A program made the position numbers and the translations under genes. Below the pieces are notes generated by a model that worked only from the letters and a program-made list of their open reading frames with translations, ran no database searches and was not told the DNA's origin. Positions 2,388 through 49,189 of a DNA stretch of 49,189 nucleotides are shown here, piece by piece. The first letter of the stretch is position 1. Each line of letters begins with the position of its first letter. Location of the stretch: sequence record DRR723986_5537; one strand, written 5' to 3'.

Positions 2388-2497
2388 TCAAAACCCCTCT
2401 CGGCAGTGACCGGACTCTCAGTGAAGAAAGTTGCACAAGCCGCTGCCGAGAAGAGGCACGCCCGATTCAACTGGATCGTGGCCATTCGAAAAACACT

Positions 2498-4200: not shown

Positions 4201-4277
4201 CAAGAGTGATGTAACGCGGGCAAAGCAGCATCGATTGCTGCAGAGCTGATTACTTCACACTCGCCCGTCGCTGTTGG

Positions 4278-4314
4278 AATTAGCGTCCGTAGATAATTAG
4301 CGTCCGTAGATAAT
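4278..4314. repeat. 17-bp tandem duplication (aattagcgtccgtagat x2 + aat)
   Basis: Read directly; overlaps the stop codon of the 4297..4950 gene. Confidence 0.9.
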
Positions 4315-4950: not shown

Positions 4951-5220
4951 ACTTCTCTCCACGCCTCGCAATTGGGCGTTACTGGAAACGGGATCGACCT
5001 GCCATTGACCGACAGGCCGGAAACATTCCTGAATGTTCGGTAGAGAGCTCGCAGCTCATCGCCACCGCAGCTCAAACTTCAGAATAATTCCAACTGCCCA
5101 TCGTCCCAACAATTATCGCACTTTCCTAAGGGATTAACGCCGCGCGAGCCATCACAATCCGCACGATCGCACCCTTAGCAAATCAACAGTATCGATATTG
5201 AACGATTGTGTGCGTGCGGC

Positions 5221-6117
5221 TTAGAAACGTCGTGCTTCGGTTGGAGTGCCGGTACGAGTGGGTTGAGGGTTAATAATCTTGTGGATAGGGTCGCCCAATG
5301 CACCTGCACACGCGAGGTCTTGGCCGTGTGACTTCTGGATCCTTGCAAGCTCGGCACTTATGGGGACGCCAAAGCCATCGAATACGTCTGGCGAAAACGC
5401 CTTCAAAGCGACCTGCGCAAGCCGACTGTTTAGTCTTGCGCTGGCGGATCGCCGGTCTATCGACTCGTCATGGTGTAACCAGAGTTGCTGGCGTAGGTGG
5501 ACCAAGTGCCATCGCCTGCTTTCACCCACGTCGTCACCATCGGAGTGAATAGACTCATGAACCTGGGCAACGTCGATCGGATTGAACGCATATGCCTCTA
5601 CCGCATGATTGAATGGCAGGAAGGCCAAGAGTTGATCGCAGTAGCTTTCAAGCTGCTGTCGCAGGCGATTTAGTTTTGCAGCTTGATTGGCCGGAAGCCC
5701 TTGTCCGAAAACGAGCAAATGCAAGCACCGGTTGCGGGCTTCAGTGTGGCTTTGGAACGCAGTGTCGCTAAGCGACGTAAAATCGCTCGGCTCCTGCTCC
5801 GGCAGCGAAGCGTCCTGGCTCTCAAGTTCCACAAGCTTTCCGAAGTACGCCATAACCCTGGCCAGCGGCTCCGCTAGAAGTATTTCCTGAAGCAGCGGAT
5901 TGATCTTGTTCCAGCACTGCAGGCGGTGAGAGACACCTGGCCGCTGACTCTCGATTCGATGCCGTGCCAATTGACCACTCCATTGATCATGACGAAAACG
6001 GGTCGCCAGCCAGTAAGAGTTGGACAGTTCGCGGTTGGGAAATGTCGCCTGAGTAAGCTGGACGGTGGCATTCTGTGCAAAGATAGCCGCCATTTCCGCG
6101 AGATGTATTGCGTGCAT
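5221..6117 (-). CDS. Hypothetical protein (mostly helical)
   Basis: ORF 5221..6228; probable start at MHAIHLAEM (6117). Confidence 0.7.
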   Translation of the reverse strand: MHAIHLAEMAAIFAQNATVQLTQATFPNRELSNSYWLATRFRHDQWSGQLARHRIESQRPGVSHRLQCWNKINPLLQEILLAEPLARVMAYFGKLVELESQDASLPEQEPSDFTSLSDTAFQSHTEARNRCLHLLVFGQGLPANQAAKLNRLRQQLESYCDQLLAFLPFNHAVEAYAFNPIDVAQVHESIHSDGDDVGESRRWHLVHLRQQLWLHHDESIDRRSASARLNSRLAQVALKAFSPDVFDGFGVPISAELARIQKSHGQDLACAGALGDPIHKIINPQPTRTGTPTEARRF

Positions 6118-21310: not shown

Positions 21311-21315
21311 CCAGT

Positions 21316-21418
21316 GTAGCAGGCACGCTCCGCCGTGCCGTCCGCCATCATCAATCAGGTTACGATTGGTGACCACTTAAGTAACATACAGGAACGGCAC
21401 ACGGAGTGTGCCTACTAC
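21316..21418. repeat. GTAG-type REP doublet (inverted pair), copy 1
   Basis: gtagcaggcacgctccgccgtgccgt ... acggcacacggagtgtgcctactac; nearly identical arms recur at 46441-46538. Confidence 0.8.
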
Positions 21419-21475
21419 TTTTAAGCTGACGCCGCGATCGGCCGCCAGCGTCTGGCTGATCCAATCGCTCGGAGG

Positions 21476-24863: not shown

Positions 24864-25215
24864 AGGTTTCCCTTTTTGATTCTCATGGCAAACGTGTCGC
24901 CGATGAGGCTTTCTTGGTATCGGCGGACACGGACGAACTCGCCTTGGTGCCGTGGGTGATTTGGGCAAGAGAAACGGGATGCACTTCTGGAGCTTGTTGC
25001 AAGACGCACCGAACGTCCGCCACAACGTTGGAGAAAAAACAGTTTTCTGGTTTTTTCAATTATTTGGCTGAAGTGCGGCGGGCCGCAAGCTTGTTTTAAC
25101 ACAAACCAACTAGGAGTGCGGTAAATGCTGCCTGGGTTGCAACGTGTGTTTCGTGGACTTTTCCTTGCTCCAACCGGCCGAACCTTCAACTTTCCCCCGT
25201 GTTCAAGGCAAGATT

Positions 25216-31200: not shown

Positions 31201-34200
31201 GCCATTCGTGATAGTCAAGTCCATGCGTCGACAGTTAGCGTAGTTGCCGACAGCCAATCGAGAATCAATGCTACGATCACCAACGCGTCCATTGCGGCTG
31301 GACTTAGCCTGGGAAGTGGCGGTGGGTTGGGGCTTGGGATCAACGACGCCCGCAACGTCATCGGCGATAGCAGCAGTAATCGTTCTCAGCCCGAGCTTGC
31401 GAACCAAGTCATCGCGTCAATCGAGGGCGATACGACCATAGATGCTAGCGGTTCGGTATCGGTGCTCGCTTCCAACAGCGATTCGATCACCGCGGCAATG
31501 AATGCGAATGCCGTGTCAGCGGCCGGATCGCCAGGTGCCTCGGGTGCAGTCGCCGGTGCAGGGACGGCGGCATACAGCACTGTCGCCAGCGAGGTTGTCG
31601 CACAGATTACTGGACACACTGAAAGTGGAACCGCACGGGCAAGCGTCAACTCTGGGGAAAATGTTCGCGTAACCGCAGCCGATGAGTCCGATGTGAAGAC
31701 AATCGTTGGTAGCGTAACCGTCAGCGCGGTCGTAGGAGTTTACGCTGGCAACGCGTCGATCTCGGTGTCGAAAGCTGAATCAGACGTTGGCAACTTGGTA
31801 AAATCCACGATAGAGAACGCCGATGTCGTCGCGGATCAACACATTGCGGTGCGGGCTGTTGAAAAGTCCGACATCGAGACTTTCTCGTTCACCACCGGTG
31901 TTGGCGCTACGATCGCAATCGGGGGCAATGTCACTGGCGGCGGAGCGATCGCATATGGTCGGATGGACTCAACGGTCCGCTCGAGTGTAGCCGGCAGCAA
32001 ACTCGCCGCAGGCTCAAGCGTGGCCGTTACGTCACAGTCGACCTCGGAAGTGGATTCCGACACCAAACCATTGGGTGTGTCGGTGCTGGGGCTAGCGGCC
32101 GGGGGCAGTGTCCCGACTGCCATCATTAGACCAACCGTAGAGTCGCTGTTTTCGCTGACCGAGATCGTCGCAAACGATTTCCGCGTGGAAGCCGATTTCT
32201 ATCCAATAGCAACCGCTGATGCAGCAGGCTTCCAAATCGCGTTTGGTGCAACCGTGGGAGCGTCAGATGCCACTGTTGAAGTTGGTGGTCGAGTCAATGC
32301 GGCTGTTGCAAGTGGTGACAAGCGCGTCGATGTGGATCGTTTGACTATCGACAGCGCTATGATTCCACGGAGACTCGGGGGCAGCTCGGATATCGCTTCC
32401 TCGGCAACGGCTAACGCGTCGAGCGGAGGCATCTTGTTGGGGACCAACTCAGCTTACTCGGAGTCGATCGACAGCAGTCAAGTGATCGCGCGCATTGGCG
32501 ACCTGTCGAGCAACATTCACGTCGGAACCGCAACCCTCGTAAGGGCCAACTCGTCCAACTTGCAACGCACTGAATCCGATGCCTATTCGGGTGGGGTCAT
32601 CGGCATCGGTGTACCAACTGCCTATATTGAAAACAGCTTGACGACGAAAGCAACCTTGGGAACCGGAGTCAACATCGACGGCGGTTCACTGTCTGTCGTT
32701 GCCGACGGACACTCCAATGCACTTTCGGATGCAAACGCGGGCACCGGTGGCGGTGCCGCCACCAGCATCACGCAAAGCAAGGTAGACAATCGCAGTGTGA
32801 CTGAGGCAGGCGTTGGAGTCTCAGCGGGTCGACCGTTTGCTGCTGGCGCACTGAACGTTGACTCGTTGACGATCGACGCCGATTTCCTCACGCAGACCAA
32901 CGCCGTTCTCGGTGCGGTCGCCGGTGGGCTCGTCTCTGGGCAAGGCGGTTTCGTTTACAACGACGTGCATTCTGACGTGACAGCCACGGTTGGCAATCAG
33001 ACGACCGTAACAGCAAACACGATTGACATTGATGCCAGCCAGCATGTTGCCAAACCTGATCTTGGCAAAGCGGGCAACGTAGATGCGACCACAGGCGGAC
33101 TTGTCACCGGCGGCGGCGTGGGCAGTCACACGACTCTAACTCTCAACACCGTTACCAACGTTGGTGAAGGAGCGACGCTTCGTGCAACCGGCGGCGCCTC
33201 AGCGATTTTGGCTCTGGGCTCGGAAAATTCAATTCGAGCCGCTGATAGAATGACCGTTCGAGCTGGCGGAGTGGGCGCCCAGGCGCATGTAGATGCTTCC
33301 ATCATCTCCGATCAGATGAATGCCCGGGTCAGCGTTGCCGAGAGTGCCATACTCGAAAGTTCCGGTACGATCGAAATTGAGGCCACAGGGACAGCGAACG
33401 TAAAGATTCAATCCAACTCCGATGCTTATGGAGCTGTGACAATCGGTAGTGGGTTCGCAGAAGTTGCACTGCGGCCTAAAAACGAAATCCACGTTCATGA
33501 GAACGCCCGACTGACCGCAGCCAGTGATATCAGCTTGGTTGCAGGAGTCGATACTCGCGACAAAGCCAACTACCAAATTGAATCCAGGATGGAGACTTTC
33601 GGTGGCAGTTTGATTCCACTCGAGTTCATCGACGGCGTTGCATCACTCTTAGAAACCAATCGTATCAAGATCGATTCTGGTTCAACGGTCGAATCCGGCG
33701 GCAACATTGATTTGCTATCCGAACGCATTGGTGAAAACAGTGTGGCTGGAATCGCGAAAGCCACAAACTGGGTCAGTGGTATCGACGACTTGATCAGTGG
33801 GAGGACGGCGGTGGGTGGAATCGAGCAAACCGGCGGCAGCTCTACCACTGCAGCATTCGGTGCTGTCACAGTCGATGGGACAGTAAGAACCGGAACCGAT
33901 CGACTTCGGTCGCTGACCATTACCGGTGTCTCGTTGAAAGACGGTGGCGATCCAACTTCCGCCGATGCTTATGTGGTGAATGCGACGGGCAATATTGAGT
34001 TTGAACAGCGTTTGGAAGTTGTGCGAAGTGCTCTGCACGATGACTTAGAGAGAGCCCTCGAACAACTTGCTGAATACGAAGACAACAATGGCACCAGAAA
34101 TTTTTACAACAGCGAAGTCACTCGCCTACGAGAAGAGTTGCGCAAACAAGGCCTGTTGTCACGTCCAGAACCGTCTGCGCCCGAACTGCCGACGGAACAG

Positions 34201-37200
34201 AATGCAGTCGTCGTTTCGGTTCAAGACGTTTTTGCTCAAGCAGGTGCGATTCGGGTCAGTGGCGATCGACTTGTAGGCAGCGGCCGGATTGAAGCGCCCG
34301 GAGACGCAGGCATTAGCATCGTCAATGAATCGCTTGCGCATATCGAGCTTTCTCAAATCGAGATTGCTGATTCGACTGGCGGCGTACGACTCAACGCAAC
34401 AGGCGTATCAGAAGTGGGTGGCGGTGAGCTTGCTGCAATCAATTCTGCTATTGCAACGGAGAACCTTGGCCGTGGTCTAGTTTCCGACCTCGCATTCTCC
34501 AGCGAACCTGAGTATTTCGCGAGCGCCGAGTTTAGTAGCGTGGTAGGTTCAGCAAGCGCGCCTGTTCCGAAGATCTCTGTGGCGAACACTGCACCTACAA
34601 CAACAATCGACGGCACTACTTATCCATGGCCGAACATTAGTGTCGTGAGTCAGCAGCCGAACGACACGTCGGTTCGCAACCTGAATGGTGAGGTTGAACT
34701 CATCAATCATCCGAGCGGTGCGGGCAGCATCATTATCACCGGACAGATCATTGCGGCTGAACTCGTGACTCGCGCGGGCAGTCAGGGCACCGCAACGATC
34801 AGCTTGCCCGGTGCTACTTCAATCTATGAAGTCGGCGGATCTGAATTCGCAAGCATCCACAAGCAACTTTACGATACTCAGACCTATCCGGGTATCGTCC
34901 CTTTAGATGCGAGGCCAAATTCGAATCCCCGATTCACCGACTATTTAGCAACGGTGCCGACTACACCTAGCATCTCGGCTAGCCGAATCTTCATTGAAGC
35001 AAACTTTATCAACGTAAACGGACTCATTCAGAGTGGTCAATCAGATTTTAGACTGAGTATTGGTAGCGAAGTTGCATCGGAGATTGCCGCCGGGGTTGCT
35101 GCTGGTAAGACGGGCGTTCAAGTCTTGCAAGCGCAGCCGAGCACAGACTTTACGATTAGTTACGACTACGATAGAGAGAGGATCATAGTCAGCGAGTTGG
35201 CTGTAAGCGGCGGTTATGTCGAACTGACGGGAAATGTAGCCAACACCCGGCAAGGTGAGATTCAAGTCTTTGCTGGTTACGCAGACATCATAATTGACAA
35301 CCAAACTGACTATGCCATCGAGCTGAATCGCATCGATGCAGCGCGGCGAGGAGAAGGAACAGTCATTATCAACGACTTAGGTCGTGGTGACGGTACGACT
35401 CCAGAAAGCTACCACTACATCAGAAAGGGAGATCTGATTGAGCAGAGTCGCTTCTTGCTGAACGGAAGTGTAAGTCAGGAACTCTTCGAACTCGACGATT
35501 CCGTGATCTACTTGCCAAAGCCCTTCCTGCGATACGGCTGGGCAGTTGCACAAGATCGGTCCGTGGTGGAGTACAGGACCTATCGATCCTCCAGTTGGCT
35601 CGGTGCCTTCGATGCACTAGCAAGAGACGGAGAGGAAGTTGACCGAACAGTCTACAACGGAACACCTCGAGTTCACGGTTCTGGCGCCTATTTCTTCGAG
35701 CCCAACAACCAAGTCACCAAGCCTCGGTATTCGTACGCAAAGAAAACTTTTACCAATCCAAGTTCAGACCGTGACTGGCGGTACCTCTACGGTTGGGAGG
35801 AGTGGCGTGGGGCATTTCTCTGGGCTGTTAAGGACCATTTTTCCAGATGGAAGAAGACCACAAAGCAGTTGACTCTGCACAGCCACAGCATCCGGGCCGA
35901 TCGCGCCATTGATATCAAGTTCTTTGGACACGATGAAGGCAACCTGGACATCAAGTCAAACGGTGATGTTTACATCGCAGGCGTCTTGGACAACTCATCA
36001 GGCAAGACTTCTATCGCGGCCAACGATTTAACCTCAGTCTACCAGGTGGGAGAACAAGGACTACTGCGGAGCCGTGACATCGCGTTGTCAACGAACTTCT
36101 TTGACACCGGCGAAGTGGGAGGACAGCATTTTGGAACGGAGGCAATGCCACTTAACACGGATTTGCAAAGTCTGAATTTTGACTTTGTTTCAACCGATGC
36201 ACCTGAGACCATTCTCCGCGGACAACGCGTACGCATTGAACCAGGGCACAGTGCAGGTGGCGAGATCGAAGCCGTGTATCGGTTCCTTGGCTTGAGTGAA
36301 GAAATTGATTTTGCGGCCGAGGACTTTACCAACACTGACAACTGGGAACAGGTCGCCCAAACGGCCGGTGTGTATGGTAGGCTCGGCTATCGAAACCAAA
36401 GCGTCCACCTGAACGAAGTCAACGGCGATTTGAAGCTTGGCTATCTGTCTGCAACGTCGATTTCTGCCGCTGCAGACAGGAATATTGTCAGACGCGACGA
36501 CGGGGGCCTGTCTCCTTTCGCCGAATTGATGTCGTTCACTGCAAGAACGGGGAGCATCGGATCTGCGCAGCTTCCACTTACTCTCAACGGCAACGTTGCC
36601 GCCCCGGCCATTAGCGCCTCAGCGGCCAAGGATGTGTATATTGCCTCCGATTTCTCTAATCTCGGTATCGATACGATAGAAGCAGGTGGACATGTCCAGA
36701 TCGATGCAACCGAAGCGGCACGCGTTGAGGACGTCAACTCAGACGCTGTCGAAGATACTCGCGCAATTGAGGAGATTACGCAAGAGGTTTGGATCGACTT
36801 GCAGCTAACGGAGGAGTTCGGAGCCAGTGCTAAGCGACAGGAACGCGTCACTGCGCTTCAAGCCGCACGCTCTCACGACTACCATCGCTATTGGCAGTTT
36901 CGTAACACTCAAGAAGATCCGTCGGTGTATCAACCAGAACACCGGATTGAACTTTCCCAGGCAGAAAAGGACTTCTACCAAGACGAAGACGAGATCACAA
37001 CGCTTGAAAATGCTCGCACGCAACAGTACCACAGTCTGCATTTGTCGGTTGGCTCACTAACATCCGAATACGACGAAGACTACGAGTACCAGGCTTCGGG
37101 CGACGAGCTGTCGGAGATTGACGAGTCGAAGGTGTGGACGATTGACGAACTGACCAATCTGTCGCAACCCTACGGTGTCCTCGGGGTTTCGGATACGGAA

Positions 37201-40200
37201 TTTGTGATCGAGCATCCCAATATCACCGCTGCCAGCGTCACCATCAACGCAGCGAAAGGAATCGGTTCGGTGAAGAACGGCTCCGTCGTTGAACTGAAAC
37301 CTGACGATGCAGACGCCCCAATCAGTCTGCGCGATCGCGCTCTGATCGCCGCCGCTGAACCTGACGATTTCGTCTACCTCAGTAGGGCACCTGTCTTTGT
37401 GCCAGACGTTTTCTTTAATCCAACCGGGCTCCAGCTCCCAAGCCGTGAGCAGTTCTGCCAGGGTGAGTGCCCAAAGTGGAGCGACTATGGGATGGAGGTC
37501 GGTCAAACGATCGTCATCCAGTCGGACAACTTCGCTGTGGAAGAAAGGCTTTTCGAAATCGTCGAATTGGAAGACGACTGGATGCGCGTCAACGCAGACG
37601 ACGTCTTCCCCGGCAAGTACGAGTCGACAAACGCAACGATTGGAGTCGTCATAGATCCTGACCTCCAAGACCAAGCAACCCATTTGCTTATCCGCCGCCG
37701 GGAAGATGTAGACATTAAGAGCCCCGGTCCAATCAATGCGACCAGTGAACACAATATCTTCCTGGGATCTGAAGGCGATTTGCAACTGGAGCGGATCGAA
37801 GCTGGGACCGATGCCTACGACGCTCGCGTCGAGATTCGTGCAACCGGCAACCTTATCAACGCTGCAGAGGACACTGATCAGCCAAACATCGTCGGATCGC
37901 GCGTGCTGCTTGAATCCGCATTGGATAGCATTGGAACCAGCGACCTACCTCTTCGCCTTGCACTAACCGAGAACCATACGCTGATCGCCCGAGCTGATGA
38001 CTTGCTCGCACTGGTGCAGGACAACGCAAACGGCTCTGCTGACTTGCATGTCGATGAACTTTTCTCACGGCGGGAGCCGATCCAGATTCACGCGACTGGC
38101 TCAATCTTAGATGCATTTGCTAGTTCCGTGGCAAACGTCCAAGCACCTGGGATAACACTGACTGCCGGAGGATCAATCGGCACGACGGACAACCCGCTGG
38201 AACTGAATCACACCGGCACCGGGACACTGACAGCCGTTGCTCAGACGGACGTAGTCATCACCGAAACGGCTGGTGACCTGAACCTTCGGCAGGTGTTGGC
38301 ACAGACTGGCGACGTGACCTTGGTTGCCGACTTCTCCATCCTCGATGCGGTCGATGTTGTGGATGCGACGGACTCCGATTCGACGGACTCAGAGCAGATT
38401 ACTGGCCTTCCGCGAACGGACGTTGTTGGTAACTCTGTTACGCTAACCGCAAAATTCGGTACCGTAGGAACGGCAGGCAACGAGGTCGATATCGACTCAA
38501 ACTTCGCTGGCAGCGAGGCAAACCGTGGCAGTGTGAGTAGTTCGAGCGTGGGCAACACCTACATCACCGAAACCACAGGCGACCTGTACCTCGGCCGAAT
38601 TGAGACCGACGACGAAACTGCATTCATTGTGGCACCTGGAGGCGGTATCTATTCGGGCCTGAGGATTGGCGAAGGAAATGTCTTGGGTGGAAAGCTGTGG
38701 GTCTTTGCCGCGGACGACATCGGAACGCCTGACATGCCGCTGGTGAGTTTCGCAACCTCACTTGAAGGTATCTCCACTTCGGGATCAATTTCCTTGGAGC
38801 AGCGCGTACCACTTGAAATCGGTGGAGTAGTCGGCGGTGCTGGTGAAGGTGAAGACAGCAATTTTGCTGACGGGCTCGCTGCTGGGCAGGACGTTACCAT
38901 CCGCGGTGAGCGACTCCGCCTATCGGAGCGCATTGAGGCCGACGGCGACATCGAGTTGGCTCTGAGAGAGTCGTTCACCATGCCTGCCGGGACTTCTATC
39001 GCAGGACGCGGAGGACGCGTTACCATCACTGCCCCGGAGCTGACTGTTGCTAAGGGAGCTGCGATCCACAGCGCTTCTCGCATTCTCATGAGGGCACCGG
39101 CGAAACCAGATGGAACAGGATCAGATGTTTCGCTGGAAGGCAGTCTTCTTGGCGGTGGTATCATCTCGATAAGTAGTTCTCCGCAGGACGATCTGATTCG
39201 TGCGAACATTGAAGAATTCAGTGGAACCCAGTTCATCATTGCCGGCAACGATGGCAACGACGAGATTCACGGGAGTCGTTTCCGCGACTATATCTACGGC
39301 GGTGCCGGTGAAGACACCATTGACGGAGGGCTTGGCTGTGACATTATTCAAGGGCGTGAGGGATTTGATACCTACTTGAACGTCGAGGCCTGCGATAATA
39401 TCGGTACATTGACCGCATCAATCGATCCAGTTGCCGAAGACGCTCCGCGGAACACCGTTGTCGGAACAATTGGCTTTGAAGACCTCGACGAAGAAGATAG
39501 CGTCACCTATCGCCTCGTAGACGAGGATTCTCCCTTTGGAGTTCGTGGCAACGAATTGGTCGTGTTGGATCCCGCCTTACTCAACCGGTCGAGTTCCTAC
39601 AGCATTCCCGTAACGATTGCCGCCGATCACGCTCAGGGCGGAACCACAACGGGGACTTTTGGCATACGCGTGAATGCAGACAACGACACTCCGTTCGGTA
39701 TTCAACTTTCGGGCGACTCGATACCTGAGAATGAATCCGGTGCGGTCATTGGTGATCTGACATTCTCTGACCACGACATCGGCGACGCCCACACCTTCTC
39801 CGTCACTGATGACAGATTTGAAGTTTCAGATGGAATGCTGAAGCTGAAATCAGCAGAGTCGCTTAATCACGAGCTGGAATCTCAGATTGAACTCGGCATC
39901 ACCGTCACCGATCTCGCTGGAGCTTCGACTAGTGCGAACATCGGAATTGACGTACTGAACAGGAACGACATTCCAACTCAGATTGAGTTGCATGATCTGG
40001 CCTTGCTCGAAAACCTCGAGGGCATGCCGATTGGAACCGTTGATGTGATGGACGAGGACGCTGGTGCGGCCTACGACATTCAAGTCGACCATTCACAGCT
40101 TGAGATCGTTGGAAACACAGTTCAGCTCAAGGCCGGCGAATATCTAGATCGCAGCCAAGCCGACCAGTTGACCTTCTCGATCACTGTCATAGATCAATCC

Positions 40201-40623
40201 GAGCCTTCGATTCAATTGACGCAAGAATTCCAGTTCACCATCCAGCCCAACGAAGCCGTTTGGCAAAGCACAACAAACACCCTGGACGTCAATCAAGACG
40301 GATTCATTGCACCGATCGACGTTCTATTGATCGTCAATGCCTTGAACTCCGAAGACGTCCGGGACGCCATACCACTGTCCAACTTTGCATTCCCGAGCAC
40401 TCGAGAATTCGCGTCGCTGAGTCCGTTTTACGACGTTAGCGGCGACAAGTTCCTTACGCCCCTTGATGCACTTCTGGTGATCAACCATCTCAACCGAAAT
40501 GCCGAAGGAGAGCACTCGGGCAGCTTCGCTGGCACACCTGCCGTTCCCGACTTTGCCAAAGACAAGGACCGCCGCGATGAGTACTTCGCCGAGTACCAGG
40601 AGTTCGACACGCCACAGTTCTAA
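25216..40623 (+). CDS. Giant (~5100 aa) extracellular protein/adhesin: planctomycete export motif, long beta-helix-like region, RTX repeats, cadherin-like domains, dockerin
   Basis: LRVETLETRQLL near the N-terminus; long Ala/Gly/Ser/Val-rich repeats; GNDGND/GGAGED/GGLGCD nonapeptides (~39235-39375); cadherin-like units (~39410-40250); DVNQDGFIAPIDVLLIVN...DVSGDKFLTPLDALLVIN dockerin (~40280-40495). ORF is open from 25144. Confidence 0.9.
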   Translation: MALKSRKSRIQKRDEIAKPRRRSLLSRALRVETLETRQLLTGNFEFDSPGTDVELQVVGNAVQIIDQADGSVLAESEIAAIDERISITSRSFRADSLLELDGNSLQVYADTVDLTGAVIRTTDFDDAEDAGALLFEAREIDVLAGSTLDTQTTANSNHVAGRITLRAVDRTSDLNRFFQEAALPAVGDVRSSRLELANSTLLGTNITLIADGNTLSRYDDVAVYQDSIASGVIDALAQTPQIALSAVSPLSGQVKVHEATSSIVVTNSGITSSGWIDVDATAVADSSINALAINGTNQAFMGSVGFSSSTSSATINLLGNTSFDAASYIDIETSAVSTAETTTRSEGGSDVSSEELDVAFNLALALTNEVSTIDVGQGVTIESNGRVNLDAQGTVTNKAKADTAVFEDGKAAFSVAVGVDNAEVRANVAGTITSHDAGQVRKVTVPASAFDAATNQVQLTVPANAPLRVGERIRYGAAPAADTGLIDQAEYIVAEATQPEALGHGQVSQRVRLTRATSLPLDARQVPEDSEHTLAKLAVVEFPVSAISTESGTGDGRIELTLPAGVEQVTYLGPDTPEEDEPEPEGIPGLVQNDRYDVVRDGSNIKLRSIDTGVIVDFTAPADGPDHGFSYHESVVSFRPRQAVDHATGRITLPTGHGLQTGDLLVYGVDPERSIAREVGAFDAEGKPATKLGDVTLPDAPIQGLESSIAYRVIVDAHRPNEVRLARNLIHAELAKTSNLLPVNSGTFEFERLELQEGIRVNAHLDATNFAQAGVNLANSEQPWPSLVQGASNGRLDDIGQLGFRFIDQLRDGIRANGKQQAESETSTQSDTNLDLAGSLSVAVFEHLVQAEISDAAEQKTLGDLTIEATTEQALKLGVTAESTRNGLNETHDVEGRELALGVGVGVYSTTTHAIVDDSAKLDAAGNTNVHAGVSYPLLTQTEGNQHTVSTGLAGFNAWLSGDLDFTNLTNVYSRSLASGDGNDDSKVLAIGGGIALTFTNNDVLAQVASDAQINQDTGYFRPGRVVDVTASLDATMIEVGQMMSVNLSVPGIMEAIVKGVDKQHDVTTFLSELVNPLGVSGDKAFGGTLIVNTATGNVTAEIESGVTVSAEKLDVLADSDTYNFAGVQTGTGSTEIGFSAAIAASNLSSTTKAAIHEGAKINAPVLTIEANDELDRTTYAGAVLKGQQAGIGTSIGVNIVQQNVAAFMGREDATGATSAAQSYALGSARIAAQALGTVETIAISGAVQGLGGASADASSRQTGPLAITAPVVYNSVTTDVDAYLDGPQFAEVGSLEIAAHDGTSSKALVIGGSFAFQTAAGANAGKLNLAGAGAVAINHKHQTVDAAIHDSLVKGISDITVRATESSEVVADAGGLALAFGTGPNRGTALSFGTSVAINDVSGHTKAIVDNSTIDMQVSSGDLLVSATSIGGADDEPASRIRGLALGGAASGSTLPATATLGALGAAARNWVNRTVSAEITNDSDVQLAQGGIRVLAKDEGSIVADVGGLSLSGGVATKINGALGVGLAFNEVENATIARIENSDVSSDGAILVQANLPVDDSTAKPATIDALSVAGSLAVAGSQGLSASLAGAGSGSNNQIRNTITAEIIDSDVDSHAGSIDVQAHDATSIVATTVGAAIDAAFASGFSGVVSVGLSIARNEIDNTTLAKIDGGKVSTREDTGTQVNVHAADDGSISAVAVAASIAVGVSIAPAFSLSGGGAEASNIVLSDADTLIQNAEIATGTLSVTTDSSATIRSDVVGVTAGVAGSAAAGATASIGAAVANNFVGYLIDGNKEDARSHAQIFGSTIDASTIELISDSSQDIEATTFVGGFVVAATGGAAASAAGSGSRTSNRIGSSTFANLDAASAPAIDVSDQLRLHATDRSTVHANTTATTVAGFASGGAGGAFQIGLSLAENVLDNRVEALLSSVSFADPSSPPVVDLRAKQSEESVIDSNSVAVSVSGAAASGIAGGIGVAGASSVNTVSNKTLAAIRDSQVHASTVSVVADSQSRINATITNASIAAGLSLGSGGGLGLGINDARNVIGDSSSNRSQPELANQVIASIEGDTTIDASGSVSVLASNSDSITAAMNANAVSAAGSPGASGAVAGAGTAAYSTVASEVVAQITGHTESGTARASVNSGENVRVTAADESDVKTIVGSVTVSAVVGVYAGNASISVSKAESDVGNLVKSTIENADVVADQHIAVRAVEKSDIETFSFTTGVGATIAIGGNVTGGGAIAYGRMDSTVRSSVAGSKLAAGSSVAVTSQSTSEVDSDTKPLGVSVLGLAAGGSVPTAIIRPTVESLFSLTEIVANDFRVEADFYPIATADAAGFQIAFGATVGASDATVEVGGRVNAAVASGDKRVDVDRLTIDSAMIPRRLGGSSDIASSATANASSGGILLGTNSAYSESIDSSQVIARIGDLSSNIHVGTATLVRANSSNLQRTESDAYSGGVIGIGVPTAYIENSLTTKATLGTGVNIDGGSLSVVADGHSNALSDANAGTGGGAATSITQSKVDNRSVTEAGVGVSAGRPFAAGALNVDSLTIDADFLTQTNAVLGAVAGGLVSGQGGFVYNDVHSDVTATVGNQTTVTANTIDIDASQHVAKPDLGKAGNVDATTGGLVTGGGVGSHTTLTLNTVTNVGEGATLRATGGASAILALGSENSIRAADRMTVRAGGVGAQAHVDASIISDQMNARVSVAESAILESSGTIEIEATGTANVKIQSNSDAYGAVTIGSGFAEVALRPKNEIHVHENARLTAASDISLVAGVDTRDKANYQIESRMETFGGSLIPLEFIDGVASLLETNRIKIDSGSTVESGGNIDLLSERIGENSVAGIAKATNWVSGIDDLISGRTAVGGIEQTGGSSTTAAFGAVTVDGTVRTGTDRLRSLTITGVSLKDGGDPTSADAYVVNATGNIEFEQRLEVVRSALHDDLERALEQLAEYEDNNGTRNFYNSEVTRLREELRKQGLLSRPEPSAPELPTEQNAVVVSVQDVFAQAGAIRVSGDRLVGSGRIEAPGDAGISIVNESLAHIELSQIEIADSTGGVRLNATGVSEVGGGELAAINSAIATENLGRGLVSDLAFSSEPEYFASAEFSSVVGSASAPVPKISVANTAPTTTIDGTTYPWPNISVVSQQPNDTSVRNLNGEVELINHPSGAGSIIITGQIIAAELVTRAGSQGTATISLPGATSIYEVGGSEFASIHKQLYDTQTYPGIVPLDARPNSNPRFTDYLATVPTTPSISASRIFIEANFINVNGLIQSGQSDFRLSIGSEVASEIAAGVAAGKTGVQVLQAQPSTDFTISYDYDRERIIVSELAVSGGYVELTGNVANTRQGEIQVFAGYADIIIDNQTDYAIELNRIDAARRGEGTVIINDLGRGDGTTPESYHYIRKGDLIEQSRFLLNGSVSQELFELDDSVIYLPKPFLRYGWAVAQDRSVVEYRTYRSSSWLGAFDALARDGEEVDRTVYNGTPRVHGSGAYFFEPNNQVTKPRYSYAKKTFTNPSSDRDWRYLYGWEEWRGAFLWAVKDHFSRWKKTTKQLTLHSHSIRADRAIDIKFFGHDEGNLDIKSNGDVYIAGVLDNSSGKTSIAANDLTSVYQVGEQGLLRSRDIALSTNFFDTGEVGGQHFGTEAMPLNTDLQSLNFDFVSTDAPETILRGQRVRIEPGHSAGGEIEAVYRFLGLSEEIDFAAEDFTNTDNWEQVAQTAGVYGRLGYRNQSVHLNEVNGDLKLGYLSATSISAAADRNIVRRDDGGLSPFAELMSFTARTGSIGSAQLPLTLNGNVAAPAISASAAKDVYIASDFSNLGIDTIEAGGHVQIDATEAARVEDVNSDAVEDTRAIEEITQEVWIDLQLTEEFGASAKRQERVTALQAARSHDYHRYWQFRNTQEDPSVYQPEHRIELSQAEKDFYQDEDEITTLENARTQQYHSLHLSVGSLTSEYDEDYEYQASGDELSEIDESKVWTIDELTNLSQPYGVLGVSDTEFVIEHPNITAASVTINAAKGIGSVKNGSVVELKPDDADAPISLRDRALIAAAEPDDFVYLSRAPVFVPDVFFNPTGLQLPSREQFCQGECPKWSDYGMEVGQTIVIQSDNFAVEERLFEIVELEDDWMRVNADDVFPGKYESTNATIGVVIDPDLQDQATHLLIRRREDVDIKSPGPINATSEHNIFLGSEGDLQLERIEAGTDAYDARVEIRATGNLINAAEDTDQPNIVGSRVLLESALDSIGTSDLPLRLALTENHTLIARADDLLALVQDNANGSADLHVDELFSRREPIQIHATGSILDAFASSVANVQAPGITLTAGGSIGTTDNPLELNHTGTGTLTAVAQTDVVITETAGDLNLRQVLAQTGDVTLVADFSILDAVDVVDATDSDSTDSEQITGLPRTDVVGNSVTLTAKFGTVGTAGNEVDIDSNFAGSEANRGSVSSSSVGNTYITETTGDLYLGRIETDDETAFIVAPGGGIYSGLRIGEGNVLGGKLWVFAADDIGTPDMPLVSFATSLEGISTSGSISLEQRVPLEIGGVVGGAGEGEDSNFADGLAAGQDVTIRGERLRLSERIEADGDIELALRESFTMPAGTSIAGRGGRVTITAPELTVAKGAAIHSASRILMRAPAKPDGTGSDVSLEGSLLGGGIISISSSPQDDLIRANIEEFSGTQFIIAGNDGNDEIHGSRFRDYIYGGAGEDTIDGGLGCDIIQGREGFDTYLNVEACDNIGTLTASIDPVAEDAPRNTVVGTIGFEDLDEEDSVTYRLVDEDSPFGVRGNELVVLDPALLNRSSSYSIPVTIAADHAQGGTTTGTFGIRVNADNDTPFGIQLSGDSIPENESGAVIGDLTFSDHDIGDAHTFSVTDDRFEVSDGMLKLKSAESLNHELESQIELGITVTDLAGASTSANIGIDVLNRNDIPTQIELHDLALLENLEGMPIGTVDVMDEDAGAAYDIQVDHSQLEIVGNTVQLKAGEYLDRSQADQLTFSITVIDQSEPSIQLTQEFQFTIQPNEAVWQSTTNTLDVNQDGFIAPIDVLLIVNALNSEDVRDAIPLSNFAFPSTREFASLSPFYDVSGDKFLTPLDALLVINHLNRNAEGEHSGSFAGTPAVPDFAKDKDRRDEYFAEYQEFDTPQF

Positions 40624-40717: not shown

Positions 40718-40760
40718 GGTAGCTCACCCCGCGTGCGCGGCGAAGCGTGCCAGCTACTTT
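40718..40760. repeat. Degenerate/collapsed copy of the REP element
   Basis: cggcgaagcgtgccagctac (40738-40757) matches the reverse complement of the 21316 left arm at 18/20; a gtagct partner lies at 40719. Confidence 0.55.
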
Positions 40761-44202: not shown

Positions 44203-45132
44203 ATGACGCAACTCGCACCAGGACTGGCCTTGCAGCGTTCTGTGATCTTAGCCACGGCTCTCTTGGCGTGCGGTTGCACTGGAGTTAATCAAACCGGTGG
44301 TCAGAATACGAAGGTTGACGATCCGAAGCAGGAATCGTCGCGCTCATTGGTACCGGCCGCGTCACCAGGTCAGCAATCGCCAATGAACACTCACTCCGCG
44401 GAGCAGACTACTGCACCGGATCCAGCACGTGCCACAGATGCACTGCAAGTTGATCAAGATACCGTTGATTCCAATCAATCCACTGACCTTGCAGTTCCGA
44501 AGCCTTCGAGGGCGGCGATTGAGGCGTTGGTCGACCAGTTGGTTTATGTTGATGAGACGCAAGGAAAGAATCCGGTCGTTGAGCCCAACTCTGAAGAACA
44601 CGCTCGCAGATTCAAAGTATGCCAGGATGCGTTTGCAAAGCTAACGGAACTCAAGGACGATGCTTTTGATGTGCTCGTGGAACATCTAGACGATCCACGC
44701 AGCTCGATCCCGTTCCGGAACCACGTCGCACGTCACTCAGTTGGCGCGGCCTGCTACCACATCATCTATTTCCAGTTGCAGGATCGTCCTGTCGGCTACT
44801 CAAAGTACGGTTGGAGCCGTATTGGCAGCGATGGCAAATCGTATCCCAAGCCATATTGGGCAGGGAATCCATTCGAAGAAGCGGGAGGTTTGGAGGCTTG
44901 GTTGACCGCCAATGATTCACTCACTTACACGCAGATGCAGATCAAGTGTTTGGGTTGGCTACTCGATCGCGAGAAGGAGATAGGCGCTGCTGATGCGGAA
45001 AGCTATTTCGTGAATATCTTGCCGCTCGAAGTCAGAATCTTAGAACGACGTCTTGAAGCTGGAGACGCAGTTGAGGTCGAACTTCGGAAGATGCGAGAAA
45101 TCCTGTCGCGGAGGGATCCCACGGCGGAATAA
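44203..45132 (+). CDS. Hypothetical lipoprotein
   Basis: ILATALLACGC lipobox-like signal, low-complexity linker, globular C-terminus. Confidence 0.75.
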   Translation: MTQLAPGLALQRSVILATALLACGCTGVNQTGGQNTKVDDPKQESSRSLVPAASPGQQSPMNTHSAEQTTAPDPARATDALQVDQDTVDSNQSTDLAVPKPSRAAIEALVDQLVYVDETQGKNPVVEPNSEEHARRFKVCQDAFAKLTELKDDAFDVLVEHLDDPRSSIPFRNHVARHSVGAACYHIIYFQLQDRPVGYSKYGWSRIGSDGKSYPKPYWAGNPFEEAGGLEAWLTANDSLTYTQMQIKCLGWLLDREKEIGAADAESYFVNILPLEVRILERRLEAGDAVEVELRKMREILSRRDPTAE

Positions 45133-45678
45133 ACTTGCCTCGCCCTTGCGCGAGTATCGCTCCCACAATCATGAAGAAGAGCCAGATGCCCCAGCGAACA
45201 AAATGATAAAGTGCCCCCTTTAGATTGCTGCAGTCGATCATGTACTCGTCTAAAGTCTCATCTGTCTCAGTCCACGTACAAGCTGAGTGCGGGACCATAC
45301 CGCATTCAACACAGATCTTCATGCCATCCATGAAAAAGTACGGCTCAGAGAGATACCTAGCGCCGGCATCTGAGTGGCGGTACCACAATCCGCATGGGTG
45401 TACACGCGTGGGCATTATCAATGTTTTCGTTCATAGTAAAGGATCAAAGCGTCAGCGTTATGCAATCCGACGCAATAGATGTTCGATGTAAGACTAGTCG
45501 TGGTTCGTCGGCTTCGTATCAACGCTTTGTGCTGCTTCTTTGTTGCGAATGGGAAGTTCAGAACCAATTGGCGGTTTCAGCCGACCGCCCTTTGCTCCCC
45601 ATCCCCAATTATCCGCATTGGCAGGTCGATGCGCTTTGTGTTTTGCAGCGAATTCGCCGATTGTTGAGTCAGTCTTGA

Positions 45679-46056
45679 TTATTTCAAGTGACGCTTGTGG
45701 AATGGCATGATCTCAAACCAGTATTCGCTCTGTAACGCCGCATCGCGAATACGATTAATCTTTTCCGCAGGTGCCCTCAGCATCATGTCAACGCGATTCG
45801 TGTGGGACTTGGTGGCCACAAGTTCAACATCTGTTGCCACACCAACGACTGTGGTTCCCTCATCACTGACGAATCTAACCCCAACCGTAACCTTCTGTCC
45901 GCATTTCCAATTGAATGGCCGCGAGGTCTTTGGTTGGGCAATGATCCGTATTAGCGAGGTTTGGGTTTCTTTGTCCTTGTCGTCGCCGTGCGACGCCATG
46001 CATTGGCTGACAGACACAAGTATCAGGGTAGCCGCCGGGGCATAGAATAGACGCAT
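45679..46056 (-). CDS. Secreted hypothetical protein
   Basis: 125 aa ORF with signal-peptide-like N-terminus. Confidence 0.6.
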   Translation of the reverse strand: MRLFYAPAATLILVSVSQCMASHGDDKDKETQTSLIRIIAQPKTSRPFNWKCGQKVTVGVRFVSDEGTTVVGVATDVELVATKSHTNRVDMMLRAPAEKINRIRDAALQSEYWFEIMPFHKRHLK

Positions 46057-46193
46057 CTGTTAGCTTCAAAAAGCAGAAGAATCCATGTAAGTCGGTGGTT
46101 TTGGGACTGAGTCGTTCCTCTCAGGCTGCTAGCTAAGCGGCAGAGGTTATGACTCACCCACCTCAACGCCCCTTAGCCAACGGAAGACCAAGA

Positions 46194-46423
46194 ATGGTTC
46201 TCGCAATTGATCTAGGTAAATACAACTCGATGTTCTGCTCTTACGATCTGAAAACGCAAAATGCCGAATTCCGGAAAGCGGAAACGACGAAAAGCAACCT
46301 TGCGCGGTACTCCAGAGCCGAAGTATCGCTCTAGTGATTATGGAAGCTCATGGACCAAGCGGTTGGATTTGGGATCGATGCATAGGACTGAACCTGACGT
46401 CTTTCGTTCGAACTACAATCTAG
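46194..46423 (+). mobile_element. IS110-family transposase remnant (N-terminal DEDD/RuvC-like part; frameshifted and truncated)
   Basis: MVLAIDLGKYNSMFCSYD..., then after a frameshift near 46300 ...IALVIMEAHGPSGWIWDRC...; this supplies the first D and the E of the IS110 DEDD motif. Stops at TAG 46421-46423. Confidence 0.8.
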
Positions 46424-46437
46424 CGCGACCGCGAAAC

Positions 46438-46541
46438 AAAGTAGTAGGCACGCTCCGCCGTGCCGTCCGCACCAACCAGATTCCACCCACTACTGCTCAG
46501 TTTATTCGCGGTCACGGCACACGGAGTGTGCCTACTACTTT
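46438..46541. repeat. GTAG-type REP doublet (inverted pair), copy 2
   Basis: aaagtagtaggcacgctccgccgtgccgt ... acggcacacggagtgtgcctactacttt. Confidence 0.8.
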
Positions 46542-46662
46542 CATGCGGGAGCGATCGAGTGCCTCTACCACGTCGACGGCCATCAGCCAAGATCCGATGA
46601 ACAATACAGGCAAGAGGCGTAACTCGAATGCCTGACGAGCCTGAACCACCACCGGCTTCAGT

Positions 46663-46773
46663 AAATAACGACGCAAAATACCGGGGTGCCGCCAGCGACG
46701 TCGGCTTCAGTTTCAGCACGGATAGCCTCCAGTGCACACAGCTGCTACATGCAATTATCTGCGTTCGTTATCC
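46663..46773 (-). other. attC-like recombination site (degenerate, last in array)
   Basis: Minus strand GGATAAC (contains the gene's TAA) gaacgcagataattg ... cggtattttgcgtc GTTATTT; arms are imperfectly complementary. Confidence 0.55.
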
Positions 46774-47406
46774 GATGCTTGTAACGATGCGGTAGCTTTC
46801 CGGCGATTCAAGACCGACCAGTCCAGCCAATCCCTCGCGCCAGATACCCGACACAAACTGATCAAGAGATTCTAGCCATGTGACGTGCACCTTGGAATCA
46901 GGAGTGAGGCGGCGCATCTGGTCGGGGCGATATTCGGCAGGTTCCAACCGGCGGTCATTGTTCCAATCGGTGACACGTTCTAGAACAGGTTCAGCAATCC
47001 CCTGTTCCTTGAGGCTCTCGATCGGCGGCGGCTGTTGACCGTCACCGAATAATCGAACGTACTGTGCGTCCACGGGACCGCCGACAATCACGGTGTGATC
47101 ATGCCATGACGGCAGGTCGAGGTCCGGCAGTGAGATCCATGCGGCATATTTGTCGCTGCCTTCAAAGTTGGCACGGACGTAGTCGTGGACGCCGGGAGAC
47201 AGATCGGCAGGGAGACCTGTATTAAACGGAATGACCGCGTGATCGCCGAAGAAGAGTGACGTTGGCCGTGACCGAACGGGCCACCAACACACGTTCAGAA
47301 TGCCGATGCGTGTCCTTGGGTCCAGCACGCGATCAGCAACGTGCAGCGCGGGTCGCCACCCGTCCGCGTCGCGGTACTCGAGTAGCAGGTTGATATCAGT
47401 AGACAT
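46768..47406 (-). CDS. Gene-cassette ORF, hypothetical protein
   Basis: ATG 47406 (MSTDINLLLEY) with GAAGG upstream, directly after an attC; stop codon lies inside the next AAC box. Confidence 0.75.
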   Translation of the reverse strand: MSTDINLLLEYRDADGWRPALHVADRVLDPRTRIGILNVCWWPVRSRPTSLFFGDHAVIPFNTGLPADLSPGVHDYVRANFEGSDKYAAWISLPDLDLPSWHDHTVIVGGPVDAQYVRLFGDGQQPPPIESLKEQGIAEPVLERVTDWNNDRRLEPAEYRPDQMRRLTPDSKVHVTWLESLDQFVSGIWREGLAGLVGLESPESYRIVTSIG

Positions 47407-47425
47407 GGTGCGGCCTTCGCTTGCG

Positions 47426-47517
47426 AGACAACGCCCACAATAACCGAGTCGCCGAATGTGATAATGAAGTAAAACGCGTCTGGGCTCGGCGACTACAAGT
47501 TTATCGCGTTGTTCTCC
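47426..47517 (-). other. attC-like recombination site (92 bp)
   Basis: Minus strand GGAGAAC...GTTGTCT; inner stem agtcgccga/tcggcgact; closely similar to the site at 47991-48082. Confidence 0.82.
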
Positions 47518-47549
47518 ATCTGATCGGAATGGCTTCCATTGAAAGCCGT

Positions 47550-47873
47550 TCAGTCCAAGTATCTTACGAACAACAAAGTCAGACAAGTGAGAAAAGGAAA
47601 TAGCAGCGGGAGGCCAAAGAGCGACATCCTAACACAATCCCTTGCGTTGCTTTCTCGGTGGTAGTCGGCCGAAGCTCTCAATCGCATTGACAGTGCAAGG
47701 AAAGCAGAAAAAGCTACCATAGCAATACCGACCAGAGCAAACGGAAATGAGACAATGGTCAGGAGAGCAAGAAGCCCAGGATACCAATGAGAAATTGCCG
47801 GAAACAGCGCACACAGGACAGCGAAACCCGTGGTCAGCGAAAAAATGGCGGATATCGAGAATCGAAAATTCAT
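47550..47873 (-). CDS. Gene-cassette ORF, small membrane protein (~3 TM)
   Basis: MNFRFSISAIFSLTTGFAVLCALF N-terminus; lies between two attC-like sites. Confidence 0.72.
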   Translation of the reverse strand: MNFRFSISAIFSLTTGFAVLCALFPAISHWYPGLLALLTIVSFPFALVGIAMVAFSAFLALSMRLRASADYHRESNARDCVRMSLFGLPLLFPFLTCLTLLFVRYLD

Positions 47874-47990
47874 CGCATCATTGATCATTCTCAAATCTAC
47901 CGGACCCAAACAGTGTCAGCTAGCGATCCTATCGAATCCGGTGAAGCCCTACCTACATCGCACCTGTAAGCGAGTCGGTCGCATCAGGAT

Positions 47991-48082
47991 GGAGAACCGT
48001 GGCGATAACCGAGTCGCCGTAGTTGATATTGATGTAAAACTTGTCAGGCCTCGGCGACTTCGAGTTTATCGCGTTGTTCGCC
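47991..48082 (-). other. attC-like recombination site (92 bp)
   Basis: Minus strand GGCGAAC...GTTCTCC; stems gcgata/tatcgc and agtcgccg/cggcgact with extra bases on one arm. Confidence 0.85.
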
Positions 48083-48157
48083 AGTTTCCAGGATCCTGGG
48101 CGCATTGATGCGAGAAGCATGCAGGCTCAGTCTGGTGCAGAATTCTTCCAATGGGGA

Positions 48158-48445
48158 TTAGCCAAAAATCAAGCTGTAGACACTAGAGAGGAAGATCGCT
48201 ACCGACAGGATGAGCAGTCCGACTCCGCCAAATAGGATCATGTAGCCCTTCAGAACTGCAGCGCCTCCTGTCAGGTTCCCAGATTCATTTTTCATAAGCT
48301 TCTCCAATCCCTTTGCGTTCGCCGTTCTGTTACGCACGGAATACCGACCGCTGAATATCATTGCTACGCTAAGGAGCCCAATGACAAGAGCCAATCCAAT
48401 TGAGGCAAGAGGAGAAGGTGGTGATGATTGGGCGAGCAGCAGCAT
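48158..48445 (-). CDS. Gene-cassette ORF, small membrane protein (2 TM)
   Basis: 95 aa, two hydrophobic helices, GAGGA upstream of the ATG; flanked by attC-like sites. Confidence 0.75.
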   Translation of the reverse strand: MLLLAQSSPPSPLASIGLALVIGLLSVAMIFSGRYSVRNRTANAKGLEKLMKNESGNLTGGAAVLKGYMILFGGVGLLILSVAIFLSSVYSLIFG

Positions 48446-48476
48446 GAAGTCTTAGTCCTCACGGGTAAATATGGCT

Positions 48477-48566
48477 GGCGAACGTCTAAAATCAACGGAT
48501 TGCCGACAGCGACGTTGATTTTGAATTCAACCGAACCGGCAACGCCGGTGCAGGCGTCCATTATGC
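48477..48566 (-). other. attC-like recombination site (90 bp, partly degenerate)
   Basis: Minus strand GCATAAT (ankyrin stop codon; AAC->AAT) ... GTTCGCC; inner stem ttgccg/cggcaa. Confidence 0.65.
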
Positions 48567-49091
48567 GGAATCTCTGACGTTAGTGGTAGTAGCATTGTGA
48601 GCTTGCGTAAGTATTTGGCGAACTCCGTCGTGTCCTCGGCTGGCGGCTATTTCTGCGGCTGTTTTCTCTTGTTGGTCCTTAAGTTTGAGGTCCGCGTTGT
48701 GAGCGACAAGTGACTTAACCGCGTCAACGCAACCAAACCAGGCTGCTTGCATTAAAGGGGAATGACCGGCCGGCGTCTGGACGTCAGGCTTTGCACCTGC
48801 ATTTAGCAACGATGTCACGCAAGCCCCTTGCCTGTCAGGCTGGTAGGGCGTTTCACCGACTGCGGCGTGTAAAACGGATTGTCCGTCATTCGCGATAGCG
48901 TTCACGTCGGCCCCCTTCTCGATTAGCCAATCTACGAGTTCAATGCGGTACGAGCGAGCCGCCGACATAAGTGCCGTATAGCCAAGCTCATTCGCAGTAT
49001 CGACGGGGACGCCGGTTGCGAGGTATTCACGAACAGCTTTGGCGTCACCCGAACCTGCAGCACAGAGAATTTCGTGGGCAAGTGTTGTCAT
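48561..49091 (-). CDS. Gene-cassette ORF, ankyrin repeat protein
   Basis: GYTALMSAA, GADVNA, GQSVLHAAV, GHSPLMQAA ankyrin repeats. Confidence 0.93.
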   Translation of the reverse strand: MTTLAHEILCAAGSGDAKAVREYLATGVPVDTANELGYTALMSAARSYRIELVDWLIEKGADVNAIANDGQSVLHAAVGETPYQPDRQGACVTSLLNAGAKPDVQTPAGHSPLMQAAWFGCVDAVKSLVAHNADLKLKDQQEKTAAEIAASRGHDGVRQILTQAHNATTTNVRDSA

Positions 49092-49102
49092 GGTGTCTCG
49101 CG

Positions 49103-49189
49103 GGATAACGCCGCCGTTCAGCGAGTCGCCCTGTTGGGTGGTTTAGTAGAGTGGACAATCTCGGCGACTTCGTTGCAACGCATGGTTCC
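49103..49189 (-). other. attC-like recombination site (truncated by window edge)
   Basis: Minus strand ..GGAAC catgcgttgcaacgaagtcgcc ... ggcgactcgctgaacggcggc GTTATCC; the ankyrin ATG follows 12 nt later. Confidence 0.8.

Follow-up and report, generated by a model that had tools for sequence, protein, structure and literature searches.

A probable chromosomal integron gene-cassette array at the right end of a Pirellulaceae DNA stretch

Repeats and genes at the right end of the window

The window analysed here, a stretch of 49,189 nt from sequence record DRR723986_5537, ends on the right in a series of inverted repeats that alternate with small minus-strand genes, and these repeats were examined as candidate attC sites of an integron gene-cassette array. 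The original prediction had named five repeat intervals in strict alternation with four single, co-oriented open reading frames (ORFs); both the alternation and the coordinates agree to the base when read from the sequence, and all four ORFs lie on the minus strand. All window sites were scored with two covariance models of the family, R1 and R2 (see below), and every match in the window fell on the plus strand. The list of five was incomplete, having missed a decayed copy at 45444-45535. The features are given below in their order along the window; the left (R') and right (R'') boxes are the 7-mers at the two ends of a site.

45444-45535, plus strand: putative decayed attC copy; boxes TCAAAGC / GTGCTGC; R1 37.5 bits, E 2e-8; R2 37.3 bits, E 7e-9
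45679-46056, minus strand: ORF of 125 aa; no Pfam or NCBIfam match; stop codon 144 nt from the decayed attC downstream
46663-46773, plus strand: site 1, probable decayed attC; boxes AAATAAC / GTTATCC; no match with R1 or R2
46768-47406, minus strand: gene A, 212 aa; no Pfam or NCBIfam match
47426-47517, plus strand: site 2, apparently intact; R' AGACAAC, R'' GTTCTCC; R1 82.0 bits; R2 54.0 bits, E 6e-14
47550-47909, minus strand: gene B, 119 aa; hydrophobic, membrane-like by eye; no Pfam or NCBIfam family
47991-48082, plus strand: site 3, apparently intact; R' GGAGAAC, R'' GTTCGCC; R1 100.8 bits; R2 77.9 bits
48158-48445, minus strand: gene C, 95 aa; hydrophobic; no Pfam or NCBIfam family
48477-48566 (covariance-model match 48477-48562), plus strand: site 4; R' GGCGAAC, right box ATTATGC; R1 17.8 bits, E 0.013; R2 19.9 bits, E 0.0014
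48561-49091, minus strand: gene D, ankyrin-repeat protein of 176 aa; Pfam Ank_2, E 4.1e-24
49103-49189, plus strand: site 5; R' GGATAAC, R'' GTTCC.. cut by the window end; R1 64.5 bits; R2 49.5 bits, E 1e-12

Three further details of the original description can be read directly from the letters. The five intervals open with a 7-mer ending in AAC and close with GTT.., the exception being the right end of site 4, ATTATGC, which gives AAT on the minus strand; sites 1, 2, 3 and 5 thus have both triplets, site 4 has AAC together with ATT, and the copy at 45444 has neither. Two TAA stop codons lie inside right-hand boxes, that of the first ORF at 46768-46770 (in GTTATCC) and that of the fourth at 48561-48563 (in ATTATGC). 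An inner stem, GAGTCGCC..N29-31..TCGGCGAC, is shared by sites 2, 3 and 5; three matches to this pattern lie in the window, where 0.00 would be expected. Over 79 nt, site 2 has 85% identity to site 3, and site 5 also retains both arms of the inner stem.

The remaining sites are less well preserved. The copy at 45444-45535 has the same orientation as the others, has lost AAC and GTT, and lies at the outermost end of the array. In site 4, the right half is degenerate and holds the stop codon of the ankyrin gene, and the left box is exactly the one predicted by the neighbour rule described below. A shorter version of this site, a 55-nt hairpin (48477-48531), was set aside in favour of the 90-nt reading because the latter fits both the neighbour rule and the position of the stop codon in the box. 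The boxes of site 1, AAATAAC and GTTATCC, are of types that recur in the family, and its left arm is 74% identical to that of site 4 over 35 nt. An alignment of site 1 with sites 3 and 4 extends for about 95 columns and points to a decayed right box near 46739-46745. Site 1 is therefore probably a decayed attC copy with an uncertain right boundary, for which 46773, about 46757 and about 46745 (the last by alignment) are the candidates. Judged by their letters, sites 2, 3 and 5 are intact and look recombination-competent, site 1, site 4 and the copy at 45444 appear to be decaying, and the array would end near 45444. Decay of these three sites is expected, since they lie at the far end of the array.

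A covarying hairpin found across the family

The secondary structure of the sites was written by hand from a nine-site alignment. On the plus strand it comprises a 7-nt R' box ending in AAC, four or five unpaired letters, an 18-bp stem with bulges on its 3' side only, a loop of about 32 nt between the stem arms, three unpaired letters and a 7-nt R'' box starting with GTT. Among the nine sites, 92.6% of the cells are paired against 85.0% in shuffled alignments, and both partners vary in eight pairs, where 3.9 would be expected (a number reached in 0 of 500 shuffles). In a larger set of 92 sites, which was gathered with the first model and whose model-fitted alignment is hence biased toward the structure, 92.8% of the cells are paired against 72.6% when shuffled and 31-45% when the pairing partner is slid by one to three columns. 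Within the long stem of these 92 sites, 15 of the 18 pairs change on both sides and 97.5% of the cells are paired. The covariation score is 0.480, compared with 0.133 for shuffled alignments (0 of 500 as high) and 0.020-0.065 for the slid controls. The triplets at the two ends are also well kept, AAC in 86 and GTT in 85 of the 92 sites.

The unpaired extra bases had been placed on the 3' arm of the plus strand, and they are found there both in the alignment and in the 92-site family, 16, 20 (in 32 of the 92) and 23 letters from the 3' end. According to passages in Nivina 2016 (PMC5027507), the extrahelical bases of attC sites are located on the R''/L'' arm, where they make IntI, the integron integrase, choose the bottom strand; the bases named there are G16, T20 and T24/T23. 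The bulge positions 16, 20 and 23 match these numbered bases, a suggestive agreement given that the origin of the numbering is uncertain.

A hairpin downstream of each ORF is also what would be seen if the repeats were transcription terminators or attenuator hairpins separating small genes. The sites have no T-tract, though, and a terminator-like scan returned five hits against 4.0 expected, just one of which falls within a proposed site (47999-48020, the left arm of site 3). Nor would a terminator need a conserved 91-nt architecture with bulges and AAC/GTT ends, and this explanation is considered scarcely credible. A sigma-70-like promoter scan returned one hit against 2.7 expected and none in an attC.

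The best identity of the window DNA to 401 sampled Pirellulaceae-family genomes is just 73-75%, and the source organism appears from this comparison to be a Pirellulaceae planctomycete distant from those sampled. A pattern scan with one genome per species gave at least 120 loci, seven of which, among the matches listed, were kept as true relatives by their flanks (L034, L043, L065, L081, L087, L091 and L099, in Pirellulaceae, Aureliella, Roseiconus or Planctomycetota genomes). The other 113 listed loci were rejected as chance matches in G+C-rich genomes, the pattern being too loose. The covariance model R1 was built from nine sites in five genomes and the window. A custom covariance model had been proposed as a check, and the family models indeed find sites in the window and in relatives. 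In five Pirellulaceae-type genomes R1 detects 98, 21, 9, 4 and 4 copies. The 109 copies that do not overlap are spread over 18 contigs; each contig has all its copies in one orientation, and the gaps have a median of 471 nt. Of 87 gaps between sites of related arrays, 68 have their longest open frame on the strand predicted to be the top one. R2 sites are present in 117 of 151 sampled family genomes (E <= 1e-6), at most 28 candidates having been scored per genome.

Two kinds of variation were seen in these relatives. Long attC variants, about 150 nt in an Aureliella-type genome and 130 nt in Roseiconus, have normal outer arms and an enlarged loop with its own conserved stem. By sequence they are located as follows:

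L131: 167-316, 954-1103
L065: 374-523
L169: 1777-1926, 2275-2424, 2828-2976, 5102-5251
L167: 1335-1464, 3797-3926

In L166 (contig 49 of genome G005), positions 328-5398, the attC spacing is almost exactly 415 nt and nearly all boxes are CGGGAAC / GTTCCCG. This run looks like one small cassette tandemly duplicated many times.

Crossover footprint and linkage to an integrase

On insertion by IntI, a cassette would bring its own site except for the final six letters of the R' box, which the neighbour would supply. It follows that the R'' box of a site is expected to be complementary to the beginning of the site that comes next toward intI, and not to the beginning of its own site. This neighbour rule was scored over the four variable letters in 62 pairs in which both sites have AAC and GTT, 30 of 92 pairs being dropped for lacking them. 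Complementarity to the predicted neighbour is perfect in 50/62 (mean 3.61), compared with 14/62 (mean 2.10) in the wrong direction and 18/85 (mean 2.34) for the same site, the tandem-duplicate contig L166 inflating all three figures alike. The observed mean was reached in none of 5000 within-contig permutations. Among 15 pairs that break the rule, the predicted start and end boxes are both present in the gap, 90-125 nt apart, in four; three of these four gap sites are 90-91 nt long and have the family architecture with a different inner stem. Within the window, the junctions from site 4 to site 3 (GTTCGCC / GGCGAAC) and from site 3 to site 2 (GTTCTCC / GGAGAAC) are perfect. Complementarity that runs in one direction only is taken here as the mark of past IntI crossovers between AA and C.

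Matches to the NCBIfam integron-integrase model TIGR02249 that exceed its curated cut-off were obtained in three of the five genomes of the first relatives, in two of five in a further set and in 70 of the 151 sampled genomes; the 14 control genomes gave none. In three genomes the family sites lie 0.6-1.3 kb from intI and are oriented as in the window. On contig 24 of G001, sites at 167-316, 954-1103 and 1575-1666 lie to the left of a plus-strand intI ORF (2316-3644); on contig 84 of G004, the plus-strand intI (966-1958) has a site on its left at 1-88; and on contig 56 of G267, the plus-strand intI (1990-2940) has one on its left at 622-712. By this geometry, the intI of the window array is predicted on the plus strand, beyond position 49189. 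In ten more genomes (G021, G029, G054, G065, G100, G129, G138, G140, G148 and G149, by R2 and TIGR02249), sites among those listed are no farther than about 11 kb from intI, with side and strand as predicted, bringing the total to 13. Consistently, of the 71 genomes in which intI is matched at E <= 1e-70, 69 have the attC family, against 48 of the 80 others (odds ratio 23, Fisher p 9e-9), counts that come from reading two tables together, one of the two exceptions being taken from its absence in a match list. Candidate attI junctions, GACGAAC at L131 near 2152 and at L132 near 645, complement by eye the R'' box of the first cassette.

These data also bear on whether the repeats could be REP/BIME-like (repetitive extragenic palindromic; bacterial interspersed mosaic element) or MITE-like (miniature inverted-repeat transposable element) palindromes, spread or kept for reasons unconnected with integrons such as mRNA stability or nucleoid-protein binding. 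The likeness is that of short, imperfect intergenic palindromes in many copies per genome, and the same genome does hold another dispersed palindrome family (see below). However, REP/BIME elements lack linkage to intI, strict co-orientation, AAC/GTT ends and neighbour-complementary ends, all of which the window family has: it is strictly co-oriented beside intI with a fixed side and strand in 13 genomes, carries AAC/GTT ends in 86 and 85 of 92 sites, and shows complementarity in one direction, 50/62 against 14/62. This origin of the repeats is accordingly regarded as very improbable.

We infer that an IntI serves, or once served, this array. The region from 45444 to 49189 is best read, with a probability of about 0.93, as the promoter-distal, partly decayed end of a Pirellulaceae chromosomal integron gene-cassette array. 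The original prediction of a planctomycete attC array with minus-strand cassettes, continuing rightwards, is upheld by the intI geometry in 13 genomes, the hybrid R boxes and the covarying stems. Each unit would consist of one promoterless minus-strand gene followed by an attC of about 91 nt. The plus (bottom) strand would fold into a 7-bp R box, an unpaired spacer and a long stem with two or three bulges on its 3' arm, closed by a loop of about 30 nt. IntI would cut this strand at the junction of A and C in the AAC of the left (R') box, and cassettes could then be excised or inserted singly.

Whether the array still adjoins its integrase is a separate matter. A cluster of attC sites lacking an integron integrase (CALIN) is so defined in the part of Cury et al. 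2016 (PMC4889954) that bears on it; the criterion used here was two or more attC with intI absent from the 4 kb to each side. Such a cassette array would have been separated from its integrase through a rearrangement, an insertion at a secondary site or the loss of intI itself, and its cassettes would be immobile unless the genome encodes an IntI at another place. Detachment would accord with the failure to find an integrase among the ORFs scanned over 49 kb, with the decay of three of the six sites and with the dispersed palindrome inserted in the array at 46438-46541. Related chromosomes carry family sites hundreds of kilobases from intI, and among the 80 genomes in which no intI was detected, 48 keep the family, many of these being incomplete assemblies. 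Against this, the array leaves the window at its right edge, the predicted intI side, and therefore nothing shows detachment; the definition needs both flanks, and the right flank of the window ends in site 5. Moreover, arrays abut intI in 13 relatives, and a complete integron would be just as likely to decay at its far end. Detachment is a substantial but lesser possibility, and the integron array is judged somewhat likelier to be contiguous with an intI on its right.

Several observations weigh against the integron reading. No intI is visible for the window, which ends inside site 5; as the original prediction had stated, no integrase was found, a Phage_integrase domain being absent from the 31 window ORFs scanned and the left flank being clear over 45 kb. 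Some attC sites of relatives also lie at a great distance from every intI (G021, G054 and G041 are examples), so that a detached array is quite possible. Not all five named sites could be recognised as attC: sites 2, 3 and 5 are strong (49-101 bits), but site 4 is recognised weakly by the models and site 1 by neither (E above 10 with R1, above 5 with R2). The inverted-repeat character of the sites is supported by covariation in the family, but folding energy is better than that of shuffled sequences in site 3 only (z -2.85). For sites 2, 4, 5 and 1 the z values are -0.86, -1.24, -0.39 and +0.14, and the energy test is uninformative for these four of the five. At the window junctions, site 2 to site 1 fails the neighbour rule with two of four letters, and site 5 to site 4 is imperfect with three of four.

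A further point of this kind is that the extended box consensus RYYYAAC / GTTRRRY, as given in the text of Nivina 2016 (PMC5027507), is fitted by 0 of the 92 family sites and by no site of the window. The same text names the AAC triplet alone as conserved across all attC sites; because only AAC is so conserved, the consensus describes the sites that have been studied and is not a defining feature. The departure in box letters is real and family-wide, whereas the structure is canonical, and the earlier designation of the sites as non-canonical attC applies to the former and not to the latter.

Public sequencing data were also consulted for movement of the cassettes. Six public runs contain 6-37% of the sampled words of the window, and four of them were compared with the stretch. 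As a last point against the integron reading, no supported joint between sites was seen in these four runs, which offer short contigs only and in which rare circles would be invisible. No contig in them bridges the stretch or extends past 49189 for this copy, and the sole supported joint lies inside the unrelated palindrome. The public runs are evidence neither for nor against excision.

Multiplicity of integrases was observed in some relatives. G082, G048, G031, G094 and G123 each have three to six separate matches to the intI model over or near the cut-off, and their attC sites also occur at several distant places of one chromosome; it seems common for a genome of the family to carry several integrons or detached arrays. 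The intI of G001 (L131, 2316-3644) is a 442-aa open frame in which the SAM-like and catalytic domains begin at residue 132. About 130 N-terminal residues of this frame have no Pfam match, its start codon being predicted. In the family, the intI match commonly falls within an open frame of 430-630 aa, again with a predicted start.

Comparison with known integrons, cargo and surroundings

The Vibrio cholerae superintegron with its VCR (Vibrio cholerae repeat) sites is the classic sedentary chromosomal integron. The window array and its relatives resemble sedentary chromosomal integrons in their long co-oriented arrays of mostly promoterless cassettes, mostly of unknown function, in attC sites that are alike within the lineage with IntI at one end, and in bottom-strand hairpins with extrahelical bases and a predicted crossover between AA and C. 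Unlike those of the V. cholerae type, they occur in Pirellulaceae hosts, have boxes resembling GGNKAAC / GTTMNCC in place of RYYYAAC / GTTRRRY and sites of about 91 nt, more rarely 130 and 150 nt, and the Pirellulaceae relatives often have several intI copies and arrays.

Integrons are reported in Planctomycetes in the relevant part of Cury et al. 2016 (PMC4889954). The Planctomycetes attC is one of 11 taxon-specific covariance models described in Ghaly et al. 2021 (PMC8352920), where enough Planctomycetes attCs were gathered with general tools to build the model. The sites of the window share with that attC the phylum, the kind of element and a lineage-conserved sequence and structure, a comparison made by description only. 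It had been suggested that standard models may miss attCs of this kind; the published Planctomycetes model argues against this. The window array belongs to a well-described kind of element, the planctomycete chromosomal integron, and among the papers listed for integrons in Pirellulaceae and for integron attC in Planctomycetes no title or abstract was found that is devoted to this attC type. A search of 45000-49189 against Rfam gave no match at E up to 1.

Pirellulaceae integrons might conceivably form a recombination-specificity group of their own, a reading we regard as unlikely. It is prompted by three features: none of the 92 sites has boxes that fit the consensus, the attI-like junctions share a GTTCGYC-type core, and the one integrase examined has about 130 residues of unknown fold ahead of the usual domains. 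If box letters and integrase had co-evolved in this way, cassettes would flow freely within the family and poorly to or from the clinically studied integron classes. The window findings themselves have no bearing on antibiotic resistance.

The array adds one member to the large, little-explored cassette pool of marine and freshwater planctomycetes. Since this attC type is nearly universal in the sampled family, such Pirellulaceae arrays should be annotated as integrons and not as unexplained repeats. The family model and the neighbour rule together mark cassette boundaries to the base, although the practical value of this is modest.

The cargo consists of two small membrane proteins (genes B and C, as judged from their hydrophobicity), the ankyrin-repeat protein (gene D) and the 212-aa protein (gene A). 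Gene A has eight homologues among 5.8 billion proteins, with 56-84% identity, seven of them on contigs of 1-5 kb. Its family (P0001-P0008) has 50 invariant columns, including a CWW motif, and is without an annotated domain. Two metagenome loci, found in a second scan after a first scan had given none, hold gene A homologues beside other neighbours. At both, a GTT box lies 26-28 nt before the ATG, as in the window; a single weak family site occurs 0.7 kb off, and the DNA downstream is unrelated. The differing neighbourhoods of gene A are suggestive and lend weak support to cassette mobility. From its position, the 125-aa ORF at 45679-46056 is probably the old cassette gene of the decayed attC at 45444.

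A second, unrelated palindromic repeat is present at 46438-46541, where it is inserted within the cassette array, and also at 21314-21420 and 40741-40759. Its two 20-nt arms, separated by 64 nt, have 95% complementarity, and five instances of the arm pattern, with 0.01 expected, lie in the window. In the four public runs, many contigs match only the arms of this palindrome and then continue into unrelated sequence, as expected of a dispersed REP- or MITE-like element. A remnant of an IS110-type transposase considered at 46149-46635 was not supported by Pfam or NCBIfam searches.

The remaining 45 kb of the window hold ordinary chromosomal genes, among them those for a sulfatase, Ser/Thr kinases, extracytoplasmic function (ECF) sigma factors and a surface-type protein of 5159 aa. 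The giant open frame of this last protein spans 25144-40623. A Pfam search at E up to 1e-5 gave no family for its first 3000 residues, and the last 2159 match RTX calcium-binding, cadherin and dockerin families.

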